Source of the DNA: an uncultured Actinomycetes bacterium | GTDB lineage: Bacteria > Actinomycetota > Thermoleophilia > UBA2241 | Reading direction: 5' to 3' | DNA length: 64,000 nt | Assembly: GCA_963709345.1 (NCBI GenBank) | Contig: CAVPVX010000002.1 | Span: forward strand, 96,001 to 160,000 | Part shown: piece by piece, positions 11,982 to 51,613 of the stretch | Position numbering within the stretch: the first letter of the stretch is position 1 | Layout of the letters: every line of letters starts with the position of its first letter | Notes under the pieces: generated by a model | Databases searched by the model: none | The model's input: the letters and a program-made list of their open reading frames with translations, nothing else | Told to the model about the DNA's origin: nothing | Position numbers and translations under genes: made by a program

Positions 11982-12640
11982 GACGGGCCCGCCCCTTCCA
12001 GGACGACCCGCACGACCACGGTCACGACCTCGTCGAGCGTCATGTCCGACGTGTCGACCTCGATCGCGTCCTCGGCGCGGCGCAGAGGCGCGACGGCGCG
12101 CTCCGTGTCCCGCCGGTCGCGCTCCATCACCGCCTCCAGGACGTCGCCGGGGTCGACCTCGTCGCCCTTGGCCCACAGCTCGTCGGCGCGGCGCCCCGCC
12201 CGGATCTCCGGGCGCGCCGTGAGAAAGATCTTGACCGCCGCGTCGGGAAACACGTTGGTGCCGATATCGCGCCCTTCCATCACGGTATCGCCGCCGGCGC
12301 CCAGCGACCGCTGGCGCTCCACCAGCAGGGCGCGCACGGCCGGCAGCGCCGAGACGCGCGACGCGGCCGTGCCCATCTCGAGCGTGCGTATCGCATCGCC
12401 GACGTCGCGGCCGCCGGCGAACAGCCGGCCGGAGGCGTCAAAGCGCAGTTCGACGGACTCGGCGACACCCAGCACGGCGGCCTCGTCGTCCAGAGGCACG
12501 CCCGCCTCGGCCGCCAGCAGGCCCACGGCTCGGTACATCGCGCCCGTGTCGAGGTACAGGTACCCGAGTTGCTCCGCGGCGCGGCGCGCCACCGTGCTCT
12601 TGCCCGAGCCCACGGGACCGTCGATGGCCACGACGGTCAT
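11978..12640 (-). CDS. cmk: Cytidylate kinase
   Basis: AIDGPVGSGKST, YLDTGAMYR and MEGRDIGT motifs. Confidence 0.96.
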   Translation of the reverse strand: MTVVAIDGPVGSGKSTVARRAAEQLGYLYLDTGAMYRAVGLLAAEAGVPLDDEAAVLGVAESVELRFDASGRLFAGGRDVGDAIRTLEMGTAASRVSALPAVRALLVERQRSLGAGGDTVMEGRDIGTNVFPDAAVKIFLTARPEIRAGRRADELWAKGDEVDPGDVLEAVMERDRRDTERAVAPLRRAEDAIEVDTSDMTLDEVVTVVVRVVLEGAGPS

Positions 12641-13749
12641 GCCACTTCCGCCCGGGTGCTGACCTCGAAGCCCAGGCTGCCGAGCACGTGAGCGGCACGC
12701 GCGCAGACGTCGCTTCCGAGGACGTAGACGGTCAGGGTGCCGCCCAGCTCGGCGCTCATGTGATGCATGGCGAGGTCTTCGACGTTGATGCCGGCGTCGC
12801 CGAGCGCCACCATGATCTCCTGGAACACCCCGGGCCGGTCGCTCACGGGGATGATGAGGCGGTACAGGTCACGCGCCGGCAGGCTGCCGGCCGCGAGCAG
12901 ACGCTCACGCTGCTCCGCGGCGCGGGCGATCGTGCCGCCGAGCTGCTCGGCGTCTCCGGCGGCCAGCGCCTCCAGCACCTCCTGAAGGCCGTCCTGGAAG
13001 GTCGCCAGAGCCGCGAGCATCGCGGCACGGTTCTCGAGGAAGATGTCGGTCCAGACACGGCGGTTGCTGCCGGCGATGCGCGTGAGGTCGCGGAAGCTGG
13101 GGCCGGCGGAGAGCAGCGCGTCGCGCGCGCCCGCGTGCTGGCCTGCCTGGCTCATCAGGATGTTGGCCAGCACGTGCGGCAGGTGACTCACCACCGCCAT
13201 GACCCGGTCGTGCTCTTCCGGGTCGACAGCCACCGGACTGGCGCCGATCTCGCCCAGAAACCCGTACAGAAGCTGGTAGGCGTCGGCGTCGACGTGCGCA
13301 CCGGGCGTGACGAAGTAGGTCGCGCCCTTGTACAGCGAAGCGCGCGCGTTGGCGACCCCTGCGGTCTCCGACCCGCAGAGGGGGTGTCCGCCGATGCAGC
13401 GCCGCTGTTCGGACGGCGTCAGCGCGCGCATGAGCGCCCCCTTCGTGCTGCCGACGTCGGTGACGACCGCGTCCCGCGGCGCAGCCGCGAACGCGGCTTT
13501 GACGTGTCCCACCACGAGCCGGACCGGCGTGCAGACGAAGACCAGGTCGGCGCCGGCCACAGCCTCTTCGAGAGTACCGCAGGCGTGCGTCACAGCGCCG
13601 CGCTCGAGCGCCAGATCGAGCGTCTCCCGCGTCTGGGTGAACCCGCGGACCTCGCCGACGCCGGCACGCTCGCGCGCGGCAAGGCCCAGCGAGCCTCCCA
13701 TGAGGCCGACGCCGACGAGCGCGACGGTATCGACGCGCCTGTCGTTCAC
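12637..13749 (-). CDS. tyrA: Prephenate dehydrogenase with C-terminal ACT domain
   Basis: GVGLMGGS, DVGSTK, GGHPLCGSE, HDRVMAVVSHLPH, GPSFRDLTRIA and ACT motif DRPG. Confidence 0.92.
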   Translation of the reverse strand: MNDRRVDTVALVGVGLMGGSLGLAARERAGVGEVRGFTQTRETLDLALERGAVTHACGTLEEAVAGADLVFVCTPVRLVVGHVKAAFAAAPRDAVVTDVGSTKGALMRALTPSEQRRCIGGHPLCGSETAGVANARASLYKGATYFVTPGAHVDADAYQLLYGFLGEIGASPVAVDPEEHDRVMAVVSHLPHVLANILMSQAGQHAGARDALLSAGPSFRDLTRIAGSNRRVWTDIFLENRAAMLAALATFQDGLQEVLEALAAGDAEQLGGTIARAAEQRERLLAAGSLPARDLYRLIIPVSDRPGVFQEIMVALGDAGINVEDLAMHHMSAELGGTLTVYVLGSDVCARAAHVLGSLGFEVSTRAEVA

Positions 13750-13753
13750 GGCG

Positions 13754-14770
13754 TCAGACGACCCTCTTGCCGGTCCAGCGCGCAAGATCGAGGACACGGC
13801 CGGCGTACTCGCCGAATACGGCCGTCGGCAGCGACTGGGGCCCGTCGCACAGGGCGTGCTCCGGATTGGGGTGCGTCTCCACCAAGACCCCGTCGGCACC
13901 GGCGGCGACGCCGGCCAGCGAGAGCGGGAGCACCAGATCGAGGCGCCCGGCCGAGTGACTCGGGTCGACCACGATCGGCAGGTGGCTGGCGAGTTTGACG
14001 ATCGGGACCGCGCTGACGTCGAACGTGTTGCGCGTCGCCGTCTCGAAGGTCCGGATACCGCGCTCGCAGAGGATCACGTCGCGGTTGCCCTCCTTCACCA
14101 CGTACTCCGCCGCCATGAGGAGCTCTTCGATCGTGGTGGAAGGACCGCGTTTGAGCAGCACCGGCTTGCCGGTCTTGCCGAGCTCGGCGAGAAGCAGGAA
14201 GTTCTGCGTGTTGCGGGCGCCGACCTGCAGCACGTCGGCGTAGTTGCACACGACGTCCAGGTCGCGCGGGTCCATCACCTCGGTGACCACCGGCAGACCG
14301 GTGTCGTCGCGCGCGGCGGCCAGCATGGCCAGACCCTCTTCGCCGAGACCCTGGAAGGCATACGGCGAGGTGCGCGGCTTGAAGGCGCCGCCGCGCATCA
14401 TGTGGCCGCCGGCTTCCTTGACGGCGCGCGCTGCCTCGAGGACCTGCTCCGGTGTCTCGACCGAGCAGGGTCCGGCGATGAGCGCGAAGTGGCCGCCGCC
14501 GATCTTCACGCCGTTCACGTCGATGACGGTGTCTCGCTGCTGGAACTCGCGGCTGACGAGCTTGTACGGCCGCAGGATCGCCACCACGCGATCGACCCCC
14601 GGCATGGCCTCGAGAGGCAGCTGCGTCACGGCCTCGCGGTCGCCGATGACACCGACGACGGTGACGCGCTCGCCCGACGAGATGTGGGCGCTCGCGCCCG
14701 CTTCCTCGACGCGCGCGATCACGTTGGCGACCTCCTCTTCGGTCGCCGCCTCGTGCATGATGACCATCAT
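13754..14770 (-). CDS. aroF: DAHP synthase, type I-beta, with N-terminal regulatory domain
   Basis: IAGPCSVE, GGAFKPRTSPYAFQG, LCERGIRTF and DPSHS motifs. Confidence 0.95.
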   Translation of the reverse strand: MMVIMHEAATEEEVANVIARVEEAGASAHISSGERVTVVGVIGDREAVTQLPLEAMPGVDRVVAILRPYKLVSREFQQRDTVIDVNGVKIGGGHFALIAGPCSVETPEQVLEAARAVKEAGGHMMRGGAFKPRTSPYAFQGLGEEGLAMLAAARDDTGLPVVTEVMDPRDLDVVCNYADVLQVGARNTQNFLLLAELGKTGKPVLLKRGPSTTIEELLMAAEYVVKEGNRDVILCERGIRTFETATRNTFDVSAVPIVKLASHLPIVVDPSHSAGRLDLVLPLSLAGVAAGADGVLVETHPNPEHALCDGPQSLPTAVFGEYAGRVLDLARWTGKRVV

Positions 14771-14772
14771 GC

Positions 14773-15903
14773 TCAGCTCGGCCTCCCTTCATCGACTTCC
14801 CGCCCGCCCGCCTCGAGAGAGGCCAGCTTGCGCAGGAAGAACTCGATCTCGTCTTCTGTACCCACGCTGACGCGGGCCCACCCGGGACACCCGAGCGCAT
14901 TCCCGTCGCGCACGATCGCGCCCATCTCGAGGAGCGCCCCGCAGACCTTGTCGTGCGGATGCTGCAGGTCTCGCGTATCGACGAGCATGAAGTTCGCCTG
15001 GCTCGGCACGCTCCCGCGCCCGCGCTCTCGCAGGCGCGCCGCAAGATGCCCGCGGAGCCGCGCGTTCTCGTCGCGCCTCATCGCCACCTGAGCGCTCAGA
15101 GGCAGCGCGGCTAGCGCGGCGACCTGCGCCACACGGCTGACGTTGAAGGGCTGCCGCATCTTGTCGATCGCCCCCGTGATCTCGGGGTCGCACAGACCAT
15201 AGCCGACGCGCAGACCGCACAGACCGTAGATCTTCGAGAAGGTGCGCAGGACGACGACGTTGTCGTGCGCCTTCTGGATGGCCAGCGCGCCCTGGCTGTC
15301 GTCGGCGGTGACGAACTCATTGTACGCCTCGTCGATGATGATCAGCACGTCCTCCGGCACCGACTCGACGAGCTTCTCGACGGCGGCGGCGGGAACGTAC
15401 GTGCCACTGGGGTTGTTCGGATTGCAGACGATCACGAGCCTCGTGCGAGGCGTGAGCGCGGCCGCCATGGCCTCGAGGTCGTGGGCGAAGTCGACGAGCG
15501 GCACCGCCACCGGCACGGCCTCGTGCCGCAGGCAGATGTCGTTGTACACGACGAACGAAGGGTCGGCGAACACCACCTCGTCGCCCTTCACGAGCACGGC
15601 GTCGCCCAGCAGCATGAGCAGTTCGCACGAGCCGGCGCCGACGATCACGTTCTCCGGGGTGCGCGCGTAGCGCTCCGCCAGAGCGGCGCGCAGGTCGGTG
15701 CTGAAGCCGTCCGGGTAGCGATTCAGGTCGTCGAGCGCGTCGACGACGGCCTGCTTGACCTCGGGAAACGGGGGCAGAGGGTACTCGTTCGAGGCGAGCT
15801 TCACGACCTCGCTGAGCCCGAAGCGCCGCATGACGAGCTCGAGCGGCAGGCCGGGCTGATACGCCGTCATCCGCTCAAGAGCCGGGATCAGTCGTACGCC
15901 CAT
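14773..15903 (-). CDS. hisC: Histidinol-phosphate/aromatic aminotransferase
   Basis: KLASNE, NRYPD, CNPNNPSG, DEAY and RTFSKIYGLCGLRVGY motifs. Confidence 0.92.
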   Translation of the reverse strand: MGVRLIPALERMTAYQPGLPLELVMRRFGLSEVVKLASNEYPLPPFPEVKQAVVDALDDLNRYPDGFSTDLRAALAERYARTPENVIVGAGSCELLMLLGDAVLVKGDEVVFADPSFVVYNDICLRHEAVPVAVPLVDFAHDLEAMAAALTPRTRLVIVCNPNNPSGTYVPAAAVEKLVESVPEDVLIIIDEAYNEFVTADDSQGALAIQKAHDNVVVLRTFSKIYGLCGLRVGYGLCDPEITGAIDKMRQPFNVSRVAQVAALAALPLSAQVAMRRDENARLRGHLAARLRERGRGSVPSQANFMLVDTRDLQHPHDKVCGALLEMGAIVRDGNALGCPGWARVSVGTEDEIEFFLRKLASLEAGGREVDEGRPS

Positions 15904-15907
15904 GCGC

Positions 15908-16282
15908 TCACTCCGGCAGGTCGAGGCGCAGCTGTCGCGCGCCGTGCAGGTAGACGTGGTGGACGGCCCGGTCCCGAGGCACGTACACGTGCATGAGCAC
16001 CCGGATGCAGCGCTCGATCGCGCCGTCGACCACGATCTCCTGGCAGCAGAGCAGAGGAGTCTCCGAGAGGCCGACGCCCCGCGCCGCCGCGGCGGGGAAG
16101 CCGGCGCGAAGGTCCGGCGTGGCGCTGAAGATCGCACTGACGACCTCGTCGACCGCGAGCCCGTTGCGCTCCAGGATCGCCGTGACGAGCTCACCGGTGC
16201 GATAGCCGATGGCATCGCTCGTGTCACGGACGACGGTCGTCGCGCCGCGGATCGCGCGGAGTCGCTCCGAGGATTCGGTCAT
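15908..16282 (-). CDS. aroH: AroH-type chorismate mutase
   Basis: RAIRGATT, FPAAAAR, CIRVLMH and VYLHGARQLRLDL motifs. Confidence 0.93.
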   Translation of the reverse strand: MTESSERLRAIRGATTVVRDTSDAIGYRTGELVTAILERNGLAVDEVVSAIFSATPDLRAGFPAAAARGVGLSETPLLCCQEIVVDGAIERCIRVLMHVYVPRDRAVHHVYLHGARQLRLDLPE

Positions 16283-16312: not shown

Positions 16313-17137
16313 CTATACACCCGCAAGACCTTCGTCCGCGGCTTCGACGGGCGCGGCTTCGGCAGCCAGCGGCACCGGTGGCCCCTCCACCTCCTGCGAG
16401 ACCTCGCCGTCGACCGACTCACCGGCGCGGCGCAACGACTCGACCTCCTCGGCCGACAGCTGACGGTGTCCACCGGGCTCGAGGCCCTTGTCGGTCAGCG
16501 TGCCGTACCGGCGGCGGCTCAACTCCTCGACCGGCAGGCCCACAGCCGCGAACATGCGCCTGACCTGGCGCTTGCGACCCTCGTGGATGGTGAGCTCTAC
16601 CAGCGCCGTCTTCGCGCTCTGCTTCCTGAGCTTGGCGTCCGCGGGTGCGGTCGGCCCGTCTTCCAGGTCGACTCCCTGGCGGAGCGTGCCCAGTGCCCGG
16701 CGGCTGACCTTGCCACGCACCCGCGCGACGTAGGTCTTGGGGACGCCGTAGCGTGGGTGCATGAGCTGGTTCGCCAGCACGCCGTCGTTCGTCAGAATGA
16801 TGAGGCCGGTCGTATCGACGTCGAGGCGCCCGACTGGGAACAGCGCCCGGCCGCCGGGGACCATGTCGACGATGACCTTCTCGGCGTGGGGGTCGCTGCG
16901 CGTGCTGGCCACGCCGCGCGGCTTGTTGACGAGGACGTAGCGCAGCTCACGAGCCTCGACCGGCTCGCCGCGCACGGCGACGACGTCGTCAGCGCCGACC
17001 TTCTGGCGCGGGAAGGTGACCACTTCGTCGTTCACGGTCACGACTCCCTCGCGGATCAGCTCATCGCACGAGCGCCGGGAGCCGACTCCCGAGCGAGCGA
17101 GGAACACGACCAGATTCATTGGCTGGGCGGGGCTCAT
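16313..17137 (-). CDS. rluB: 23S rRNA pseudouridine synthase (RluB/RsuA family)
   Basis: S4 domain plus NKPRG, PVGRLDVDTTGL and EGRKRQVRRM motifs. Confidence 0.9.
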   Translation of the reverse strand: MSPAQPMNLVVFLARSGVGSRRSCDELIREGVVTVNDEVVTFPRQKVGADDVVAVRGEPVEARELRYVLVNKPRGVASTRSDPHAEKVIVDMVPGGRALFPVGRLDVDTTGLIILTNDGVLANQLMHPRYGVPKTYVARVRGKVSRRALGTLRQGVDLEDGPTAPADAKLRKQSAKTALVELTIHEGRKRQVRRMFAAVGLPVEELSRRRYGTLTDKGLEPGGHRQLSAEEVESLRRAGESVDGEVSQEVEGPPVPLAAEAAPVEAADEGLAGV

Positions 17138-17709
17138 AGCCCTCTCCTCTCAGCGTTGGCGTGGAGGCGTGAGCGGATCTCCTCTACCTCGTCCGCGCGC
17201 AGGGCGAACTCTTCGAGCGGCGGCAGCTCCGCACGGCCGGACAAACCGAAGAGCTTCAGGAAGCGTTCTCCCGTGCCGTACAGGATCGGCGCTCCCGGGG
17301 TGCCGGCCCGGCCCTGCTGCTCGACCAGGCCGCGCTCTTCCAGCGACCCGAGCGCCCACTCCGACGAGACGCCCCGTACCTCGGCGATCTCTGCCCGCGT
17401 GAGCGGCTCGAGATAGGCGACCACGGCGAGCGTCTCGAGCAGCGCGGGGCTCAGATCCTCCGGTCGCTCAGCGCCGGTGAGGCGCCGTACGTCTTCCGCG
17501 CACTCCTCGGTGACCGCGAACGTCACGCCACCGGCAATGTCCCGCACAAGAAGCCCGTGGCGACCTGCGGCGTACTCCTCGCGCAGCTCCGCGAGGGCCT
17601 CCGCGACGTCGTCCTCTGAACGCTCGCAGGCCGCGGCCAGACGAGCGACCGAAAGAGGACGCGATGATATGAAGAGGAGCGCCTCGAGGCGCGTGGTGAG
17701 CGATCGCAT
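17134..17709 (-). CDS. scpB: SMC-Scp complex subunit ScpB
   Basis: LEALLF, LSPALLETLAVVAY.EPLTRAEI.EVRGV and YGTGERFL.LFGL motifs. Confidence 0.94.
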   Translation of the reverse strand: MRSLTTRLEALLFISSRPLSVARLAAACERSEDDVAEALAELREEYAAGRHGLLVRDIAGGVTFAVTEECAEDVRRLTGAERPEDLSPALLETLAVVAYLEPLTRAEIAEVRGVSSEWALGSLEERGLVEQQGRAGTPGAPILYGTGERFLKLFGLSGRAELPPLEEFALRADEVEEIRSRLHANAERRGL

Positions 17710-17767
17710 GCTGGCCTGTGTCGAGTGCCGGGACGCGGTCGATGCTACCGCACACCGCCGTCCGGCG

Positions 17768-18586
17768 TCACCCGGTGGCGACGGCGGCCCTGCTGACGAA
17801 GATATCGCCGAAGTGCCGCGTCTGCCGGAGGCGAGCCTCGCCGGCGGAATGCAGTTCCAGCAGAGCGAAGAAGGTGACGGCTCGCTCGAGCCTGTCCGCA
17901 GGCGCCACCTCGGCGAACGTGAACTCGCCCTCGTCGCAGAGGATCAGCCGCAGCCGGCGAAGCTCCTTCACGAGCGAGACGGCGAGATCGGCCAGGTGGC
18001 TCGTATCCGGCACGGGCGGCTCGCGCAGGAGCGGCGCCAGCGCGTCGCCCAGCGCCTGCGCCGGCAGCGCGCCTTCTGCGGCCGGCCGGCGCAGGAGCTC
18101 AGCCGGCACCGGCACACCCCGATACAGCCTGCCGCTGTGCTCGTCCCAGCGAGCGCGCAGGCCTACGGCCGCGGCGCGGAACTGGCTATAGCGCACGAGA
18201 CGCTCGAGGAGCTGCCGCGCGGCCTCGTCCGGGTCGAGATCATCGAACTGCTCCTCGACGTCCTCTTCCAGAAGGAGCCGCGACTTCATCTCGAGCAGGG
18301 CGGCGACGAGCACGACGAACTGCGAGGTGGCGTCGAGATCGAACTCGCCGCTGTCGGCAAGCCGCAGCACGTACTCGGCGATGATGCGCGAGACGCGCAC
18401 CTCCCAGATGTCGATCTCGTCACGCAGGATAAGCGTGACCAGCAGATCGAACGGACCGTCGAAGACGTCGAGGTCGAGGTCGAATGAGCGGCGATCCTGC
18501 GGCGCCCCGCTCGCCGGTTCGCCTGCGGCGGCCAGTCCGACAGGCGGTGTGGCGACGGCGCTCGCTTCAGCGCGCATCGCCGTCAC
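17768..18586 (-). CDS. scpA: Segregation and condensation protein ScpA (kleisin)
   Basis: FDGPFDLLVTLI, AALLEMKSRLLL, TFFALLEL and Q.RHFGDI motifs. Confidence 0.93.
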   Translation of the reverse strand: MTAMRAEASAVATPPVGLAAAGEPASGAPQDRRSFDLDLDVFDGPFDLLVTLILRDEIDIWEVRVSRIIAEYVLRLADSGEFDLDATSQFVVLVAALLEMKSRLLLEEDVEEQFDDLDPDEAARQLLERLVRYSQFRAAAVGLRARWDEHSGRLYRGVPVPAELLRRPAAEGALPAQALGDALAPLLREPPVPDTSHLADLAVSLVKELRRLRLILCDEGEFTFAEVAPADRLERAVTFFALLELHSAGEARLRQTRHFGDIFVSRAAVATG

Positions 18587-18686
18587 CTCCTCGCTCGCTC
18601 ATGCCGGCGTCAGCCCGTCTCGCCACGCGAGCACGACGTCCGCGAGTCGCCGCCCGCCACTGCGTCCGCGTCGTGCACAGCGCGTA

Positions 18687-19880
18687 TCATTTCTCGGGCT
18701 GATTCACAAAGGACGGGATGTCGAAGGCTCCGCTCTCGAAGTCCGGCGCGGGACCGAAGGGTGTGCCCCGGTCTTCCGCGGGCTCCCGCGGCGCGGCCCG
18801 CCCTGCGGGGGGATCAGCGGACGGCGGCGCCGTGCGCGCCGCCTCCTCTCCGAAACCGGTGGCCACGACGGTGATCGAGATCTTGCCCTCGAGACGCTCG
18901 TCCACGACGGCGCCGAAGATGATGTTGGCGTCGTCGTCGGCGGCCTCGCTGATGACTCCTGCCGCCTCGTTCACCTCGTAAAGCGTCAGATCCTCGCCGC
19001 CGGTGATGTTGAGCAGCAGCCCCCGCGCGCCGTCGATGCTCGTCTCGAGCAGCGGCGAGTTGATCGCCATGTCGGCGGCGGCCTGGGCGCGGTTCTCGCC
19101 GCCGGCGACGCCGATGCCGAGAAGCGCCGTCCCGGCGTCGTGGACGATGGTCCGAACGTCCGCGAAGTCGAGGTTGATGAGGCCGGGCACGGTGATGAGA
19201 TCCGTGATCCCCTGCACGCCCTGGCGCAGGATGTCGTCGGCGTGCTGGAACGCCTCCACGACGCTCGTGTTGCGCTCGACCACCTCGAGCAGCCGGTCGT
19301 TGGGGATCGCGATCACTGTGTCCGCGGCCGCGCGAAGCGCCAAGATGCCCTCGGCGGCCTGTCGCTGGCGGCGGTTGCCCTCGAAGCCGAAGGGCCGGGT
19401 GACGATGGCAATGGTGACCGCACCGAGCTCGCCCGCGACCTGCGCCACGACCGGCGACCCTCCGGTGCCGGTCCCCCCACCTTCGCCGGCGGTGACGAAG
19501 ACCAGGTCGGCGCCGCGCAGCGCCGTCTTCAGCTGGTCGCGGCTGATCTCCATGGCCTCGCGCCCGACCTCCGGGTCGGCGCCCCCGCCGAGGCCGTGAG
19601 TGAGCTCCTGGCCGATGTGGATCTTGACATCGGCGTCACACACGTCGAGCTGCTGAACGTCGGTGTTGACGGCGATGAACTCGACGCCCTTCACGCCCGA
19701 GTCGACCATGCGGTTGATGGCGTTCGTGCCGGCCCCGCCGATGCCCACGACCTTGATGCTGGTGACGTACGGGCGACCCTTGACCGGCGCGTCGGTCCCC
19801 GCGTCGGGAACAGTACCGCCGCTGTCCGTGCGCCGGAAGAGCTCGCTCAGTCCATCCTTCATGCTAGGACGATCTGCCAT
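18687..19880 (-). CDS. ftsZ: Cell division protein FtsZ with a ~38-aa N-terminal extension
   Basis: [24 protein letters not shown] tubulin signature, T7 loop NLDFADV and C-terminal conserved peptide FDIPSF. ATG 19880 follows a GGAGG SD. Confidence 0.97.
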
Positions 19881-20622
19881 TGAGCACCTCCCGCGCGAGG
19901 GCACGGTACGCTTCTGCTCCCCTGCCGGTTGGATCGTACTTGAGGACCGAGGCCCCCGTCACGGGCGCCTCGGCGAACTTGATGGTCTTGCGCACCACCG
20001 TGTCGAAGACGAGGTCGCCGAAGTTCTCGCGCAGGACCTCGATCGACTCCCTGCCGTGCAGCGTACACGCGTCGAAGAGCGTCGGTAAGATGCCCTTGAT
20101 GCGCACCTCGGGATTGAGATTCTCGCGGATCATCTCGAGCGTCCGCTCCAGCTGCAACAGCCCGCGCAGCGAGAGGTACTCGCACTGGACGGGCACGATG
20201 ACTCCTTCGGATGCAGTGAGCGCGTTGATGGTGAGCAGGCCGAGGCTCGGGGGCGTGTCGATCAGGATGTAGTCGTAGCGCTCACGTACCGCGTCGAGGG
20301 CGCGCTGCAGAGCCCGCTCGCGCCCGATCATCGTCGCCAGCGCCATCTCGGCGCCGGCCAGGTCGATCGTGGAGGCGGCGACGTCGAGTTCGCGCTCGTA
20401 GATGACGTCCTCGATGGGCGTACGATGCACGAGCACGTCGTACATGCTCTTCTCGAGGTCCTCGGTGTCGATGCCCTGACTCATCGTCAGGTTGCCCTGC
20501 GGGTCCATGTCGACCGCGAGCACGCGCAGATCGTGCTCCCGGAGGGCCGCGCCGAGGTTCACCGTCGAGGTGGTCTTCGCCACCCCGCCCTTCTGATTGG
20601 CGAACGCGATGACATGCGCCAT
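19864..20622 (-). CDS. Soj/ParA-family ATPase (orphan; no adjacent parB)
   Basis: Deviant Walker [41 protein letters not shown] and FAEAP motifs. Confidence 0.94.
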
Positions 20623-20692
20623 GTGAGCGTTACCCCTGTGTCGACTCCACGTCAGAACGCAGTTCTGTACGCAGGCAAGAATCCCTGCACGA

Positions 20693-20723
20693 CACGGGCC
20701 CCGCAGGTTCTGCGGGGCCCGTG
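20693..20723. terminator. Perfect 14-bp stem-loop downstream of yajC (terminator-like, no U-tract)
   Basis: CACGGGCCCCGCAG-gtt-CTGCGGGGCCCGTG, 40 nt after the yajC stop. Confidence 0.5.
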
Positions 20724-20763
20724 GGAGGTTCCTTTGAGATCATCCCGGTCGAGGTCGGGAGCG

Positions 20764-23511
<2,748 letters not shown>

Positions 23512-50569: not shown

Positions 50570-51613
50570 CTACCGGCCCCGCGGCCGGGAGTTGCGCTTG
50601 CTCTTGACGAGGACATCGAACTCCTCGAGGTACTTGCCGGATCCGACGGCTACGCAGGTGAGCGGCGATTCCGCTAGATGTACCGGCATCTGGGTCTCTT
50701 CGCGCAGGCGCTCGGGGAGCCCCTGCAGCAGCGAGCCGCCGCCGGCGAGCATGATGCCGCGGTCCATGATGTCGCTGGCGAGCTCCGGAGGTGTCTTGTC
50801 GAGCGTCGCCTTGATCGCGTCGATGATCGCCTGTGTCGGCTCCTCAAGGGCGGCCCGCACCTCTTCAGACGACAGGACGATGGTCTTGGGCAGGCCGGTG
50901 ACGAGATCGCGACCGCGGATCTCGGCCTGCTCCTCCTGTGGCAGCGGGTAGGCCGAGCCGATCTCAAGCTTGATCTCCTCCGACGTCTGGCTGCCGATGA
51001 GGAGCTTGTACTCCTTCTTGACGTAGCTGATGATCGCCTCGTCGAGCTCGTCGCCGCCGACCCGGATCGACTGGCTGACGACGATGCCGCCGAGGGAGAT
51101 CACGGCCACTTCGCTGGTGCCGCCGCCGATGTCGACGATCATGCTCCCGGTGGGCTCGGCGACCGGAAGGCCGGCGCCGATAGCGGCGGCCATCGGCTCC
51201 TCGATCAGGGTCGCCCAGCGGGCGCCGGCCGAGTAGGTCGCCTCCTCGACGGCGCGTTTCTCGACGCCGGTGACACCGCTGGGCACGCAGATGACCACGC
51301 GCGGGTGCGCCCAGCGGTTCTGCATGACCTTGCGGATGAAGTGACGGAGCATCTGCTCCGTGATGTCGAAGTCGGCGATGACGCCGTCTTTGAGCGGCCG
51401 CACGGCGCTGATCGTCGCCGGCGTGCGGCCGAGCATGCGCTTGGCCTCCCCGCCGACGGCGTGGACCTCGCCGCTGCGGTGGTCGATGGCGACGACGGAC
51501 GGCTCGCTGAGCACGATGCCGCGGCCGCGGAGATAGACGAGCGTATTGGCGGTTCCGAGATCCACCGCCATGTCGCGGGCGCCGAAGCCCGTCACGAAGC
51601 CGAGGAAGCTGAT
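50570..51613 (-). CDS. mreB: Actin-like MreB (probable non-canonical ATC start)
   Basis: [33 protein letters not shown] and GGGSLL motifs. AAAGGAG SD 6 nt before an in-frame ATC. Confidence 0.96.

Follow-up and report, generated by a model that had tools for sequence, protein, structure and literature searches.

In the PomXYZ system of Myxococcus xanthus, a nucleoid-bound ParA/MinD-family ATPase acts together with a filament-forming partner, and the resulting complex positions the Z ring (PMC7993993). Passages of the same paper report that PomX activates the ATPase through an N-terminal peptide that is short, conserved, and positively charged and that precedes an unstructured region, that such a stretch can make an activator when grafted onto any interaction domain, and that the N-terminal domains within PomX filaments function without depending on one another. 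Here, we analyze a 64,000-nucleotide stretch of DNA (the window; G000:C2:96001-160000, contig CAVPVX010000002.1) from an uncultured Thermoleophilia bacterium, the genome of which is 3.11 Mb in size, 98% complete, and 70% G+C. Our subject is a pair of genes on the minus strand of the window, in which the gene for a ParA-family ATPase overlaps a gene for an FtsZ paralog, here called FtsZ2. An initial reading of the sequence (the original prediction) had suggested that FtsZ might be the direct cargo or activator of this ATPase.

MipZ of Caulobacter and the MinCDE system target the one housekeeping FtsZ, are not known to share an overlapping gene pair with ftsZ, and need either ParB (MipZ) or both MinC and MinE (MinCDE). 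What they share with the pair described here is an ATPase of the ParA/MinD family, which in their case controls the site of FtsZ assembly according to a preprint (bioRxiv 10.1101/766287). The window ATPase also resembles PldP (Cg1610) of Corynebacterium glutamicum and Rv1708/MSMEG_3743 of mycobacteria in being the second ParA of its genome and in not being located beside parB, and the published proteins affect septum placement in the accounts consulted. The ATPase activity of PldP is not stimulated by ParB, and its partner, in the words of one passage, "has yet to be identified" (bioRxiv 10.1101/2025.07.02.662783). The mycobacterial ortholog of this ParA has been implicated in septum placement and is described, in part of a separate paper, as binding ScpA and ParB (PMC10482377).

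The window ftsZ gene (18687 to 19880, minus strand) encodes a protein of 397 amino acids, plus a stop codon, when read from its ATG. The protein scored 409.2 bits on the NCBIfam model TIGR00065, the cutoff of which is 295.2, and it combines the GGGTGTG and NLDFADV motifs with an FtsZ fold, a disordered C-terminal linker, and a terminal FDIPSF, such that the intact ftsZ read directly from the sequence, with its GGGTGTG, NLDFADV, and C-terminal DIPSF, was borne out. A search of the host genome with the window protein recovered a second ftsZ (G000:C2:296951-298012) on the same contig, approximately 182 kb from the window copy, that was 65% identical to it and scored 440 bits on TIGR00065. The genes before the second ftsZ run murF-mraY-murG-murC followed by an FtsQ-like gene, with ftsZ directly after, which is the order of the division and cell wall (dcw) cluster. 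The window copy is preceded instead by parA, and no ftsQ, ftsA, mur, sepF, or parB gene is found near the pair, as had been remarked at the outset. Because a dcw-linked ftsZ resides elsewhere in the genome, we conclude that the window ftsZ is a paralog and not the main dcw ftsZ of the organism. The original prediction had treated the gene as an ftsZ displaced from the dcw cluster, a description that does not survive the canonical copy on the same contig; it had also named such a copy as grounds for recasting the window gene as a specialized paralog, and that is the course followed here. The idea that the window gene is the only ftsZ of the organism, moved out of the dcw cluster, is ruled out by the copy at C2:296951-298012, and we give it practically no credence.

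The gene upstream of ftsZ2 (19864 to 20622, minus strand) is an open reading frame for a 252-amino-acid Soj-like ATPase with the deviant Walker A motif KGGVAKTT. Its closest solved structures were 8RAY (E = 1e-60), Thermus Soj 1WCV (E = 3e-54), and 2BEK, and KGGVAKTT, D38, D40, and D122 of the Walker A, A', and B motifs were invariant among 25 orthologs. Signature and structural similarity together identify a deviant Walker A ATPase of the ParA/Soj type, the matches of which to ParA-family NCBIfam models all fell below the equivalog cutoffs. The host genome encodes exactly two ParA-like proteins at E <= 1e-5, the second of which is 43% identical to the window protein and adjoins parB. The only ParB of the genome (TIGR00180, 168 bits) is encoded on contig C1 beside that other ParA, forming a canonical parA-parB pair; the window ParA lacks the adjacent parB that marks the ParA of a chromosomal ParABS system and was rightly called an orphan. 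When compared with two Corynebacterium genomes, the window ParA best matched, at 48 to 50% identity, the parA that precedes scpA(-scpB) and matched the parB-linked ParA at 42 to 43%. The canonical ParA of the host had the reverse preference, for the parB-linked Corynebacterium genes, and a Rubrobacteraceae genome contained a parB-linked parA only. Like PldP and Rv1708, the window ParA belongs to a gene that precedes scpA-scpB, both in the family of the window and in the two Corynebacterium genomes. Judged by these scpAB-linked best matches, we conclude that the window ParA is of the PldP/Rv1708 orphan type.

Conservation of the pair was assessed in genome sets that are samples of their groups, and the evidence throughout is comparative. 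The public loci closest to the window pair all came from Thermoleophilia metagenome-assembled genomes, and a draw of 71 Thermoleophilia genomes, at least 90% complete and representing 10 families, was used to survey the class. Two ftsZ matches were present in 69 of the 71, as was a ParA ortholog at E <= 1e-65, and the two genomes that lacked the ParA (G269 and G272) were the same two that had a single ftsZ. An ftsZ lay directly downstream of the ParA gene on the same strand in 67 of the 69, with match ends separated by -14 to +490 nucleotides, and in the remaining two (G273 and G256), which are fragmented assemblies, parA and ftsZ were on different contigs. Because the adjacency recurs in 67 of the 69 class genomes carrying this ParA, we conclude that it is far beyond chance.

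The arrangement was also found in 16 complete genomes drawn from six families other than that of the window, in which 6 kb on each side of ftsZ was searched by tblastn. Each of the 16 had exactly two ftsZ matches, one located after murG-murC and the other after a ParA that was 64 to 71% identical to the window ParA. Across the conserved pairs, ParA was only 61 to 75% identical and FtsZ2 53 to 63% identical. Moreover, the parA stop and the ftsZ2 start overlapped by 1 to 71 nucleotides in all 25 loci for which both ends could be defined. In the window, which is one of the 25, the overlap is 17 nucleotides (19864 to 19880, minus strand), exactly as first read, and it likely supports translational coupling. 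The ATG at 19880 is likely the start of ftsZ2 in preference to an upstream GTG at 19904, because the open frame of genus-level orthologs opens exactly at that methionine. In family f6 (L122, L132, and L142), ParA bears a C-terminal extension of approximately 18 residues, the overlap reaches 68 to 71 nucleotides, and the N-terminal peptide of FtsZ2 described below is encoded inside this overlap in another frame.

The genes around the pair were less constant. The order queA-tgt-parA-ftsZ2-scpA-scpB-rluB was shared by the genus of the window and the nearest public relatives, the most distant of which had an FtsZ2 of 68% identity (L040). None of Tgt, QueA, ScpA, ScpB, or RluB was detected within 6 kb of the pair at any of the 16 other-family loci (tblastn, E <= 0.01). 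An ScpB family search of five of those genomes placed scpB at distances of 1.07 Mb (G030) and 14 kb (G036); in G028 it was near the dcw ftsZ, and in G027 and G029 it was on a different contig. We note that on G028:C4 and G030:C1, scpB was 11 to 24 kb downstream of the dcw ftsZ and away from parA-ftsZ2. Thus, the proposed link of the pair to scpAB is limited to the family of the window and was absent from all 16 genomes examined in the six other families. The idea that ftsZ occupies the partner slot of the orphan ParA is supported by the class-wide conservation of the pair, the lack of which in relatives had been named as a refutation, and by the overlapping stop and start codons. Because the pair and its overlap were kept amid reshuffled flanks, the overlap in all loci appears to indicate that parA and ftsZ2 are cotranscribed and probably translationally coupled.

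Outside the class, a second ftsZ was rare. In a draw of 201 genomes from the phylum, two ftsZ matches were found in 15 of 15 Thermoleophilia, and the 186 other genomes, a tally that includes eight flagged as unpublished with one match each, comprised 177 with one match, 2 with none, and 7 with two. Tandem ftsZ copies, 353 to 606 nucleotides apart, accounted for the five examined of those seven (L146-L155; G083, G124, G137, G162, and G221), which belong to the actinobacterial families f35 and f56. The tandem copies had no link to ParA and formed two separate sister clades, one of them long branched, and they therefore represent a duplication different from that of FtsZ2. We conclude that the window locus differs from the PldP and Rv1708 loci, as genomes outside Thermoleophilia generally have one ftsZ (177 of 186) and 5 of 5 of those searched gave no significant match to the FtsZ2 N-terminal peptide described below.

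To place FtsZ2 among other FtsZ proteins, 111 FtsZ cores were analyzed under LG+G4. All 26 ParA-linked FtsZ proteins fell into one clade, with a Shimodaira-Hasegawa-like approximate likelihood ratio (SH-aLRT) support of 91. Its sister was a clade (support, 90) of Thermoleophilia FtsZ proteins that were dcw linked or of unknown context, together with FtsZ from Corynebacterium and from a Rubrobacteraceae genome, and the node joining the two had a support of 97. A second tree of 75 rows, to which 20 more actinobacterial families had been added, was built under LG+C20 with posterior mean site frequencies. Here, FtsZ2 again formed one clade (17 of 17 rows; SH-aLRT, 91) within an actinobacterial clade (support, 96), and its family-level branching roughly paralleled that of the dcw copies. 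Both trees set FtsZ2 apart as the sister group of the remaining actinobacterial FtsZ, a placement that was weakly supported (83 to 90), and a single clade uniting both Thermoleophilia copies was not rejected by the approximately unbiased (AU) test (P = 0.27). Because the AU test leaves the single Thermoleophilia clade standing, the duplication is put at or before the ancestor of the class, and it was followed by vertical inheritance. The mean pairwise identity of the cores was 63.8% for FtsZ2 versus 75.9% for dcw FtsZ, with the FtsZ2 value being the lower in 135 of 136 genome pairs, and no core position was fixed differently between the two clades. We conclude that FtsZ2 cores evolve faster than those of dcw FtsZ.

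FtsZ2 also differs from dcw FtsZ at its N terminus. In an alignment of 25 FtsZ2 orthologs (A1), every ParA-linked protein began with a peptide of the consensus M..R.SMREGPLSELFR.T, in which L11, L14, and F15 were invariant and R4, S6, M7, and T18 were at least 90% conserved. The dcw FtsZ proteins lack the peptide and begin approximately 10 residues before the first glycine box. In FtsZ2, the distance from the end of the motif to that box was 30 to 157 residues, the sequence of which was not conserved, and the first 22 residues contained two to six lysines or arginines. Farther downstream, GGGTG[ST]G was kept in 24 of the 25 orthologs and N.DF.D in 22, with the other three reading NLDLAD and retaining both aspartates. 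An AlphaFold2 model built on the 25-row alignment had a mean predicted local distance difference test (pLDDT) score of 79.9. In the window protein, codons 1 to 18 (19827 to 19880, minus strand, as are the intervals that follow) encode the peptide, in which residues 8 to 16 were predicted, at low pLDDT, to form a short amphipathic helix. The model was disordered from residue 17 to residue 40, and codons 19 to 40 (19761 to 19826) correspond to a variable linker with pLDDT values below 50. Codons 41 to 344 (18849 to 19760) encode the GTPase core, including the GGGTGTG motif and the NLDFADV T7 synergy loop, which was modeled mostly at a pLDDT above 90 with the secondary-structure pattern of FtsZ. 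Codons 345 to 397 (18690 to 18848) encode the C-terminal linker, modeled as disordered over residues 345 to 389, and the C-terminal peptide FDIPSFV.

The peptide appears to be maintained as protein sequence. Synonymous changes made up 720 of 1,310 differing codons (55%) in the motif versus 174 of 3,420 (5%) in the adjacent linker. In the window, parA reaches no farther than the first five to six codons of ftsZ2, and the overlap therefore does not account for conservation of the peptide. From the codon comparison, we conclude that selection acts on the peptide at the protein level. The motif was matched once in a six-frame translation of the host genome, and a profile of the peptide, run against a collection of 5.8 billion proteins, matched 7,396 of the 8,000 scored candidates at E <= 0.01. 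Among the best 120 listed matches, all those that were at least 260 amino acids long and had a Pfam annotation carried FtsZ domains. One long match without Pfam annotation (P0018) spanned the ParA C terminus into the FtsZ2 frame, and the short matches inspected were truncated calls of FtsZ2 N termini. Outside the class, the A1 profile gave no significant match in any of the five other actinobacterial genomes searched (best E = 0.43).

Two groups depart from the common FtsZ2 architecture. A DIPSF-type C-terminal peptide was kept in most families, and eight sequences of the f2 type, which is Miltoncostaeaceae-like (L064, L068, L092, L094, L114, L124, L134, and L144; seven of them in the 25-row table), lacked it and retained both the N-terminal peptide and the linkage to ParA. 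FtsZ2 proteins of the f3 type (L115, L125, and L136; P0001, P0009, P0033, P0049, and P0096) contained a second conserved island, ..LE[AE]TVEHV[YH]DF.., in the linker between peptide and core.

The remaining division genes of the host genome were surveyed with family models. No MinC_C match was found in this 98% complete genome, and the best match to the MinD model scored 50 bits, the cutoff being 212.9. Thus, the host lacks the combination of MinC and an above-cutoff MinD that would indicate a MinCDE system, and it differs in this respect from MinCDE-bearing organisms. No FtsA was found above the cutoff in the host genome. A weak match to the FtsA model (50 bits; cutoff, 176) was noted in a 444-amino-acid frame within the window (approximately 50669 to 51250; G000:C2:146669-147250, minus strand), and the frame probably encodes another protein of the actin/Hsp70 fold and not FtsA. 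DivIVA is encoded at C2:78364-78756, and there are two SepF genes, at G000:C2:79733-79948 and G000:C7:741111-741317, neither of them within the window; the C2 copy lies beside divIVA approximately 16 kb before the window begins. In the class draw, 57 of 71 genomes had one SepF, and at least two were found only in the genus of the window and in part of f2. SepF was considered as a class-wide, coduplicated partner of FtsZ2 and was rejected on this count: because most other class genomes have a single SepF, the second SepF is not tied to FtsZ2.

What the comparison establishes is the paralogy, the class-wide linkage, the gene overlap, the layout of peptide, linker, and core, selection on the peptide at the protein level, and the PldP-type identity of the orphan. 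FtsZ2 is an additional FtsZ, the product of an old duplication, which has been kept throughout Thermoleophilia beside the dcw ftsZ, and we propose that it is made together with the PldP/Rv1708-type ParA from one, probably translationally coupled, message. Its core is presumably a polymerizing GTPase with a C-terminal docking peptide that is usually kept. The N-terminal peptide would dock on the ATP-bound, nucleoid-associated ParA dimer and stimulate its ATPase activity, in the manner of the N termini of ParB, MinE, and PomX. A filament of FtsZ2 would then be a multivalent cargo, positioned by ParA relative to the nucleoid, and the positioned FtsZ2 may seed or restrict the Z ring through coassembly with FtsZ and through shared partners of the C-terminal peptide, such as SepF. 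We propose FtsZ2 as a ParA cargo because its position, its architecture, and the order of the two genes all match those of known activators. It is encoded with the ATPase (directly downstream in 67 of 69 genomes and overlapping in 25 of 25 loci), and it carries a short, conserved, lysine- or arginine-bearing N terminus on a flexible region that is joined to an interaction domain, subject to the reservations about charge given below. On balance, we lean toward the reading in which FtsZ2 is a direct partner and cargo of the orphan ParA and, through its N-terminal peptide, an activator of it. The class-wide pair and the peptide on its disordered linker lend the cargo or activator role originally suggested for FtsZ partial support.

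The pair resembles PomXYZ in joining an ATPase to a putative filament-forming partner with an activator-like N-terminal peptide on a region predicted to be unstructured. It differs in that the peptide is on the FtsZ paralog itself, which would place scaffold, activator, and tubulin homolog in one polypeptide, and in that the ATPase is Soj-like and of the PldP type. A likeness to ParB/Spo0J was seen by eye: both have a lysine- or arginine-bearing N-terminal peptide with the spacing hydrophobic-x-x-G-L-x-x-L-hydrophobic (in the host ParB, KKALGKGLGALI), and both are encoded just downstream of ParA. FtsZ2 differs from ParB in lacking the ParB fold, parS, and the CTP-binding module, and its cargo would be a polymer and not DNA.

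Several observations weigh against this proposal. In the genus of the window, the first 22 residues hold four lysines or arginines versus four aspartates or glutamates, giving a net charge near zero, and family f6 has only two to three lysines or arginines, with the arginine after LF replaced by glutamine or leucine. The likeness to the host's own ParB N terminus consists of the hydrophobic spacing pattern only. With its M/L/L/F face, an amphipathic helix might just as well associate with the membrane or with another protein. One family lacks the C-terminal peptide, and any coupling to the divisome is therefore not uniform. All of the relatives come from one class, such that the conserved pairs have one evolutionary origin and represent retention and not independent recurrence. 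A prediction of a complex of two ParA, two ATP, and the N-terminal 45 residues of FtsZ2, with 25-row alignments for each protein, gave scores of 0.20 and 0.14, the mark being 0.32, and weighs on neither side of the question of binding. Binding of FtsZ2 to ParA and stimulation of the ATPase are inferred by comparing sequences, as are a role in division and whether regulation would work by recruitment or by occlusion.

A less probable alternative, which we nonetheless take seriously, places FtsZ2 and ParA in the same process, with ParA perhaps acting on the FtsZ2 core as MipZ or MinCD act on FtsZ, and makes the peptide a membrane-targeting helix or a dock for some other protein. The invariant L11, L14, and F15 share one helix face with M7 and are flanked by basic residues, and helices that target the membrane typically have a hydrophobic face so flanked as well. 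Because no FtsA was found above the cutoff, one more membrane tether could plausibly be of use, and the low net positive charge of the peptide in some lineages points the same way. A membrane anchor fits poorly, however, with the conserved acidic residues within the helix ([ED] at two positions), and parA is the only gene constantly associated with the peptide-bearing FtsZ. Moreover, ParA/MinD activators recurrently have their peptide at the extreme N terminus, ahead of a disordered linker, and are encoded just behind the ATPase.

That FtsZ2 is not a division protein, and instead forms with ParA (and with ScpAB in the family of the window) a nucleoid-associated cytomotive filament for chromosome organization or segregation, seems improbable to us. 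The position of the pair directly before scpA-scpB in that family would suit such a filament, as would the faster evolution of the FtsZ2 cores and the binding to ScpA and ParB reported in part for the mycobacterial ortholog of the ParA (PMC10482377). On the other hand, the linkage to scpAB was absent from all 16 other-family genomes, the C-terminal peptide by which FtsZ binds divisome partners is retained in most FtsZ2 proteins, and no core residue is fixed differently from dcw FtsZ. We regard as slightly less probable again the view that the adjacency is mere inherited order, in which the duplicate came to lie behind parA by chance in the ancestor of the class and has stayed there with no direct functional link. 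Inertia could explain part of the conservation, as all pairs form a single clade of one origin, but it would have to preserve the pair in 67 of 69 genomes and the overlap in 25 of 25 loci while the flanks were reshuffled between families. It would also have to do so at the low identities to which ParA and FtsZ2 have diverged, and this ParA and a second ftsZ are missing from the same two genomes.

The other genes of the locus are on the minus strand in the order ruvC-ruvA-ruvB-queA-tgt, a gap of 569 nucleotides, and then parA-ftsZ2-scpA-scpB-rluB-hisC, DAHP synthase, prephenate dehydrogenase, cmk, and plsC. The gap between tgt and parA (20623 to 21191) is likely the promoter region of the operon; a scan for sigma-70 promoters and terminators that included it gave nothing above shuffle expectation, using a consensus that is weakly informative at 70% G+C. 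Downstream of ftsZ2, scpA (17768 to 18586) was identified by an NCBIfam match, with its linkage to ftsZ2 being specific to the family of the window, and scpB (17134 to 17709) scored 109 bits on TIGR00281 (cutoff, 89), in agreement with the scpA-scpB initially assigned there. An rluB-type pseudouridine synthase (16313 to 17137; TIGR00093, 163 bits) follows. The genes hisC, DAHP synthase, and prephenate dehydrogenase (12637 to 16227) separate rluB from cmk. Thus, of the parA-scpA-scpB-rluB-cmk order to which the locus had been likened, the first four genes stand in sequence, with ftsZ2 inserted, and the step from rluB to cmk is interrupted.

FtsZm of magnetotactic bacteria is another FtsZ paralog. 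Lineage-wide second copies beside a canonical FtsZ are described for the truncated FtsZ of Hyphomicrobiales and for archaeal FtsZ1/FtsZ2, in passages that do not mention a link to ParA (bioRxiv 10.1101/2025.09.29.679267). According to the same passages, other bacterial FtsZ paralogs are often truncated, whereas FtsZ2 is full length, N-terminally extended, and encoded beside ParA. Actinobacteria go unmentioned in the main text, as far as consulted, of two papers on FtsZ evolution and paralogs (PMC9871819; bioRxiv 10.1101/2025.09.29.679267). A literature search for a second ftsZ with ParA in Thermoleophilia found no description in full text, although duplicates from Actinobacteria may appear in the supplementary trees of PMC9871819 or of the preprint on Hyphomicrobiales. 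The comparison suggests that a positioning pair of the ParA/MinD-activator type with FtsZ as the candidate partner is new, and that FtsZ2, with an extended N terminus and no truncation, adds a new type to the known FtsZ paralogs.

To our knowledge, Actinobacteria lack Min and the known nucleoid-occlusion systems, and septum placement in them is a long-standing question. The PldP/Rv1708-type orphan is a candidate regulator of septum placement, and its coupling to ftsZ2 gives a concrete two-protein hypothesis. More tentatively, Thermoleophilia may possess a two-gene system that positions either the division site or a nucleoid-linked cytoskeleton, in which a self-positioning FtsZ2 would be both polymer and ParA activator and could do without adaptors of the PomXY, MinC, or ParB kind; extrapolating from this, the partner of the widespread actinobacterial orphan ParA (PldP/Rv1708) might be sought in the sphere of FtsZ and the divisome. 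If FtsZ2 is indeed the cargo of the orphan ParA, a cytoskeletal polymer would be a new type of cargo for the ParA/MinD positioning family. Members of Thermoleophilia seem to be frequent in samples from the environment, and because the peptide profile matched so many of the scored candidates, the pair may be widespread in nature.

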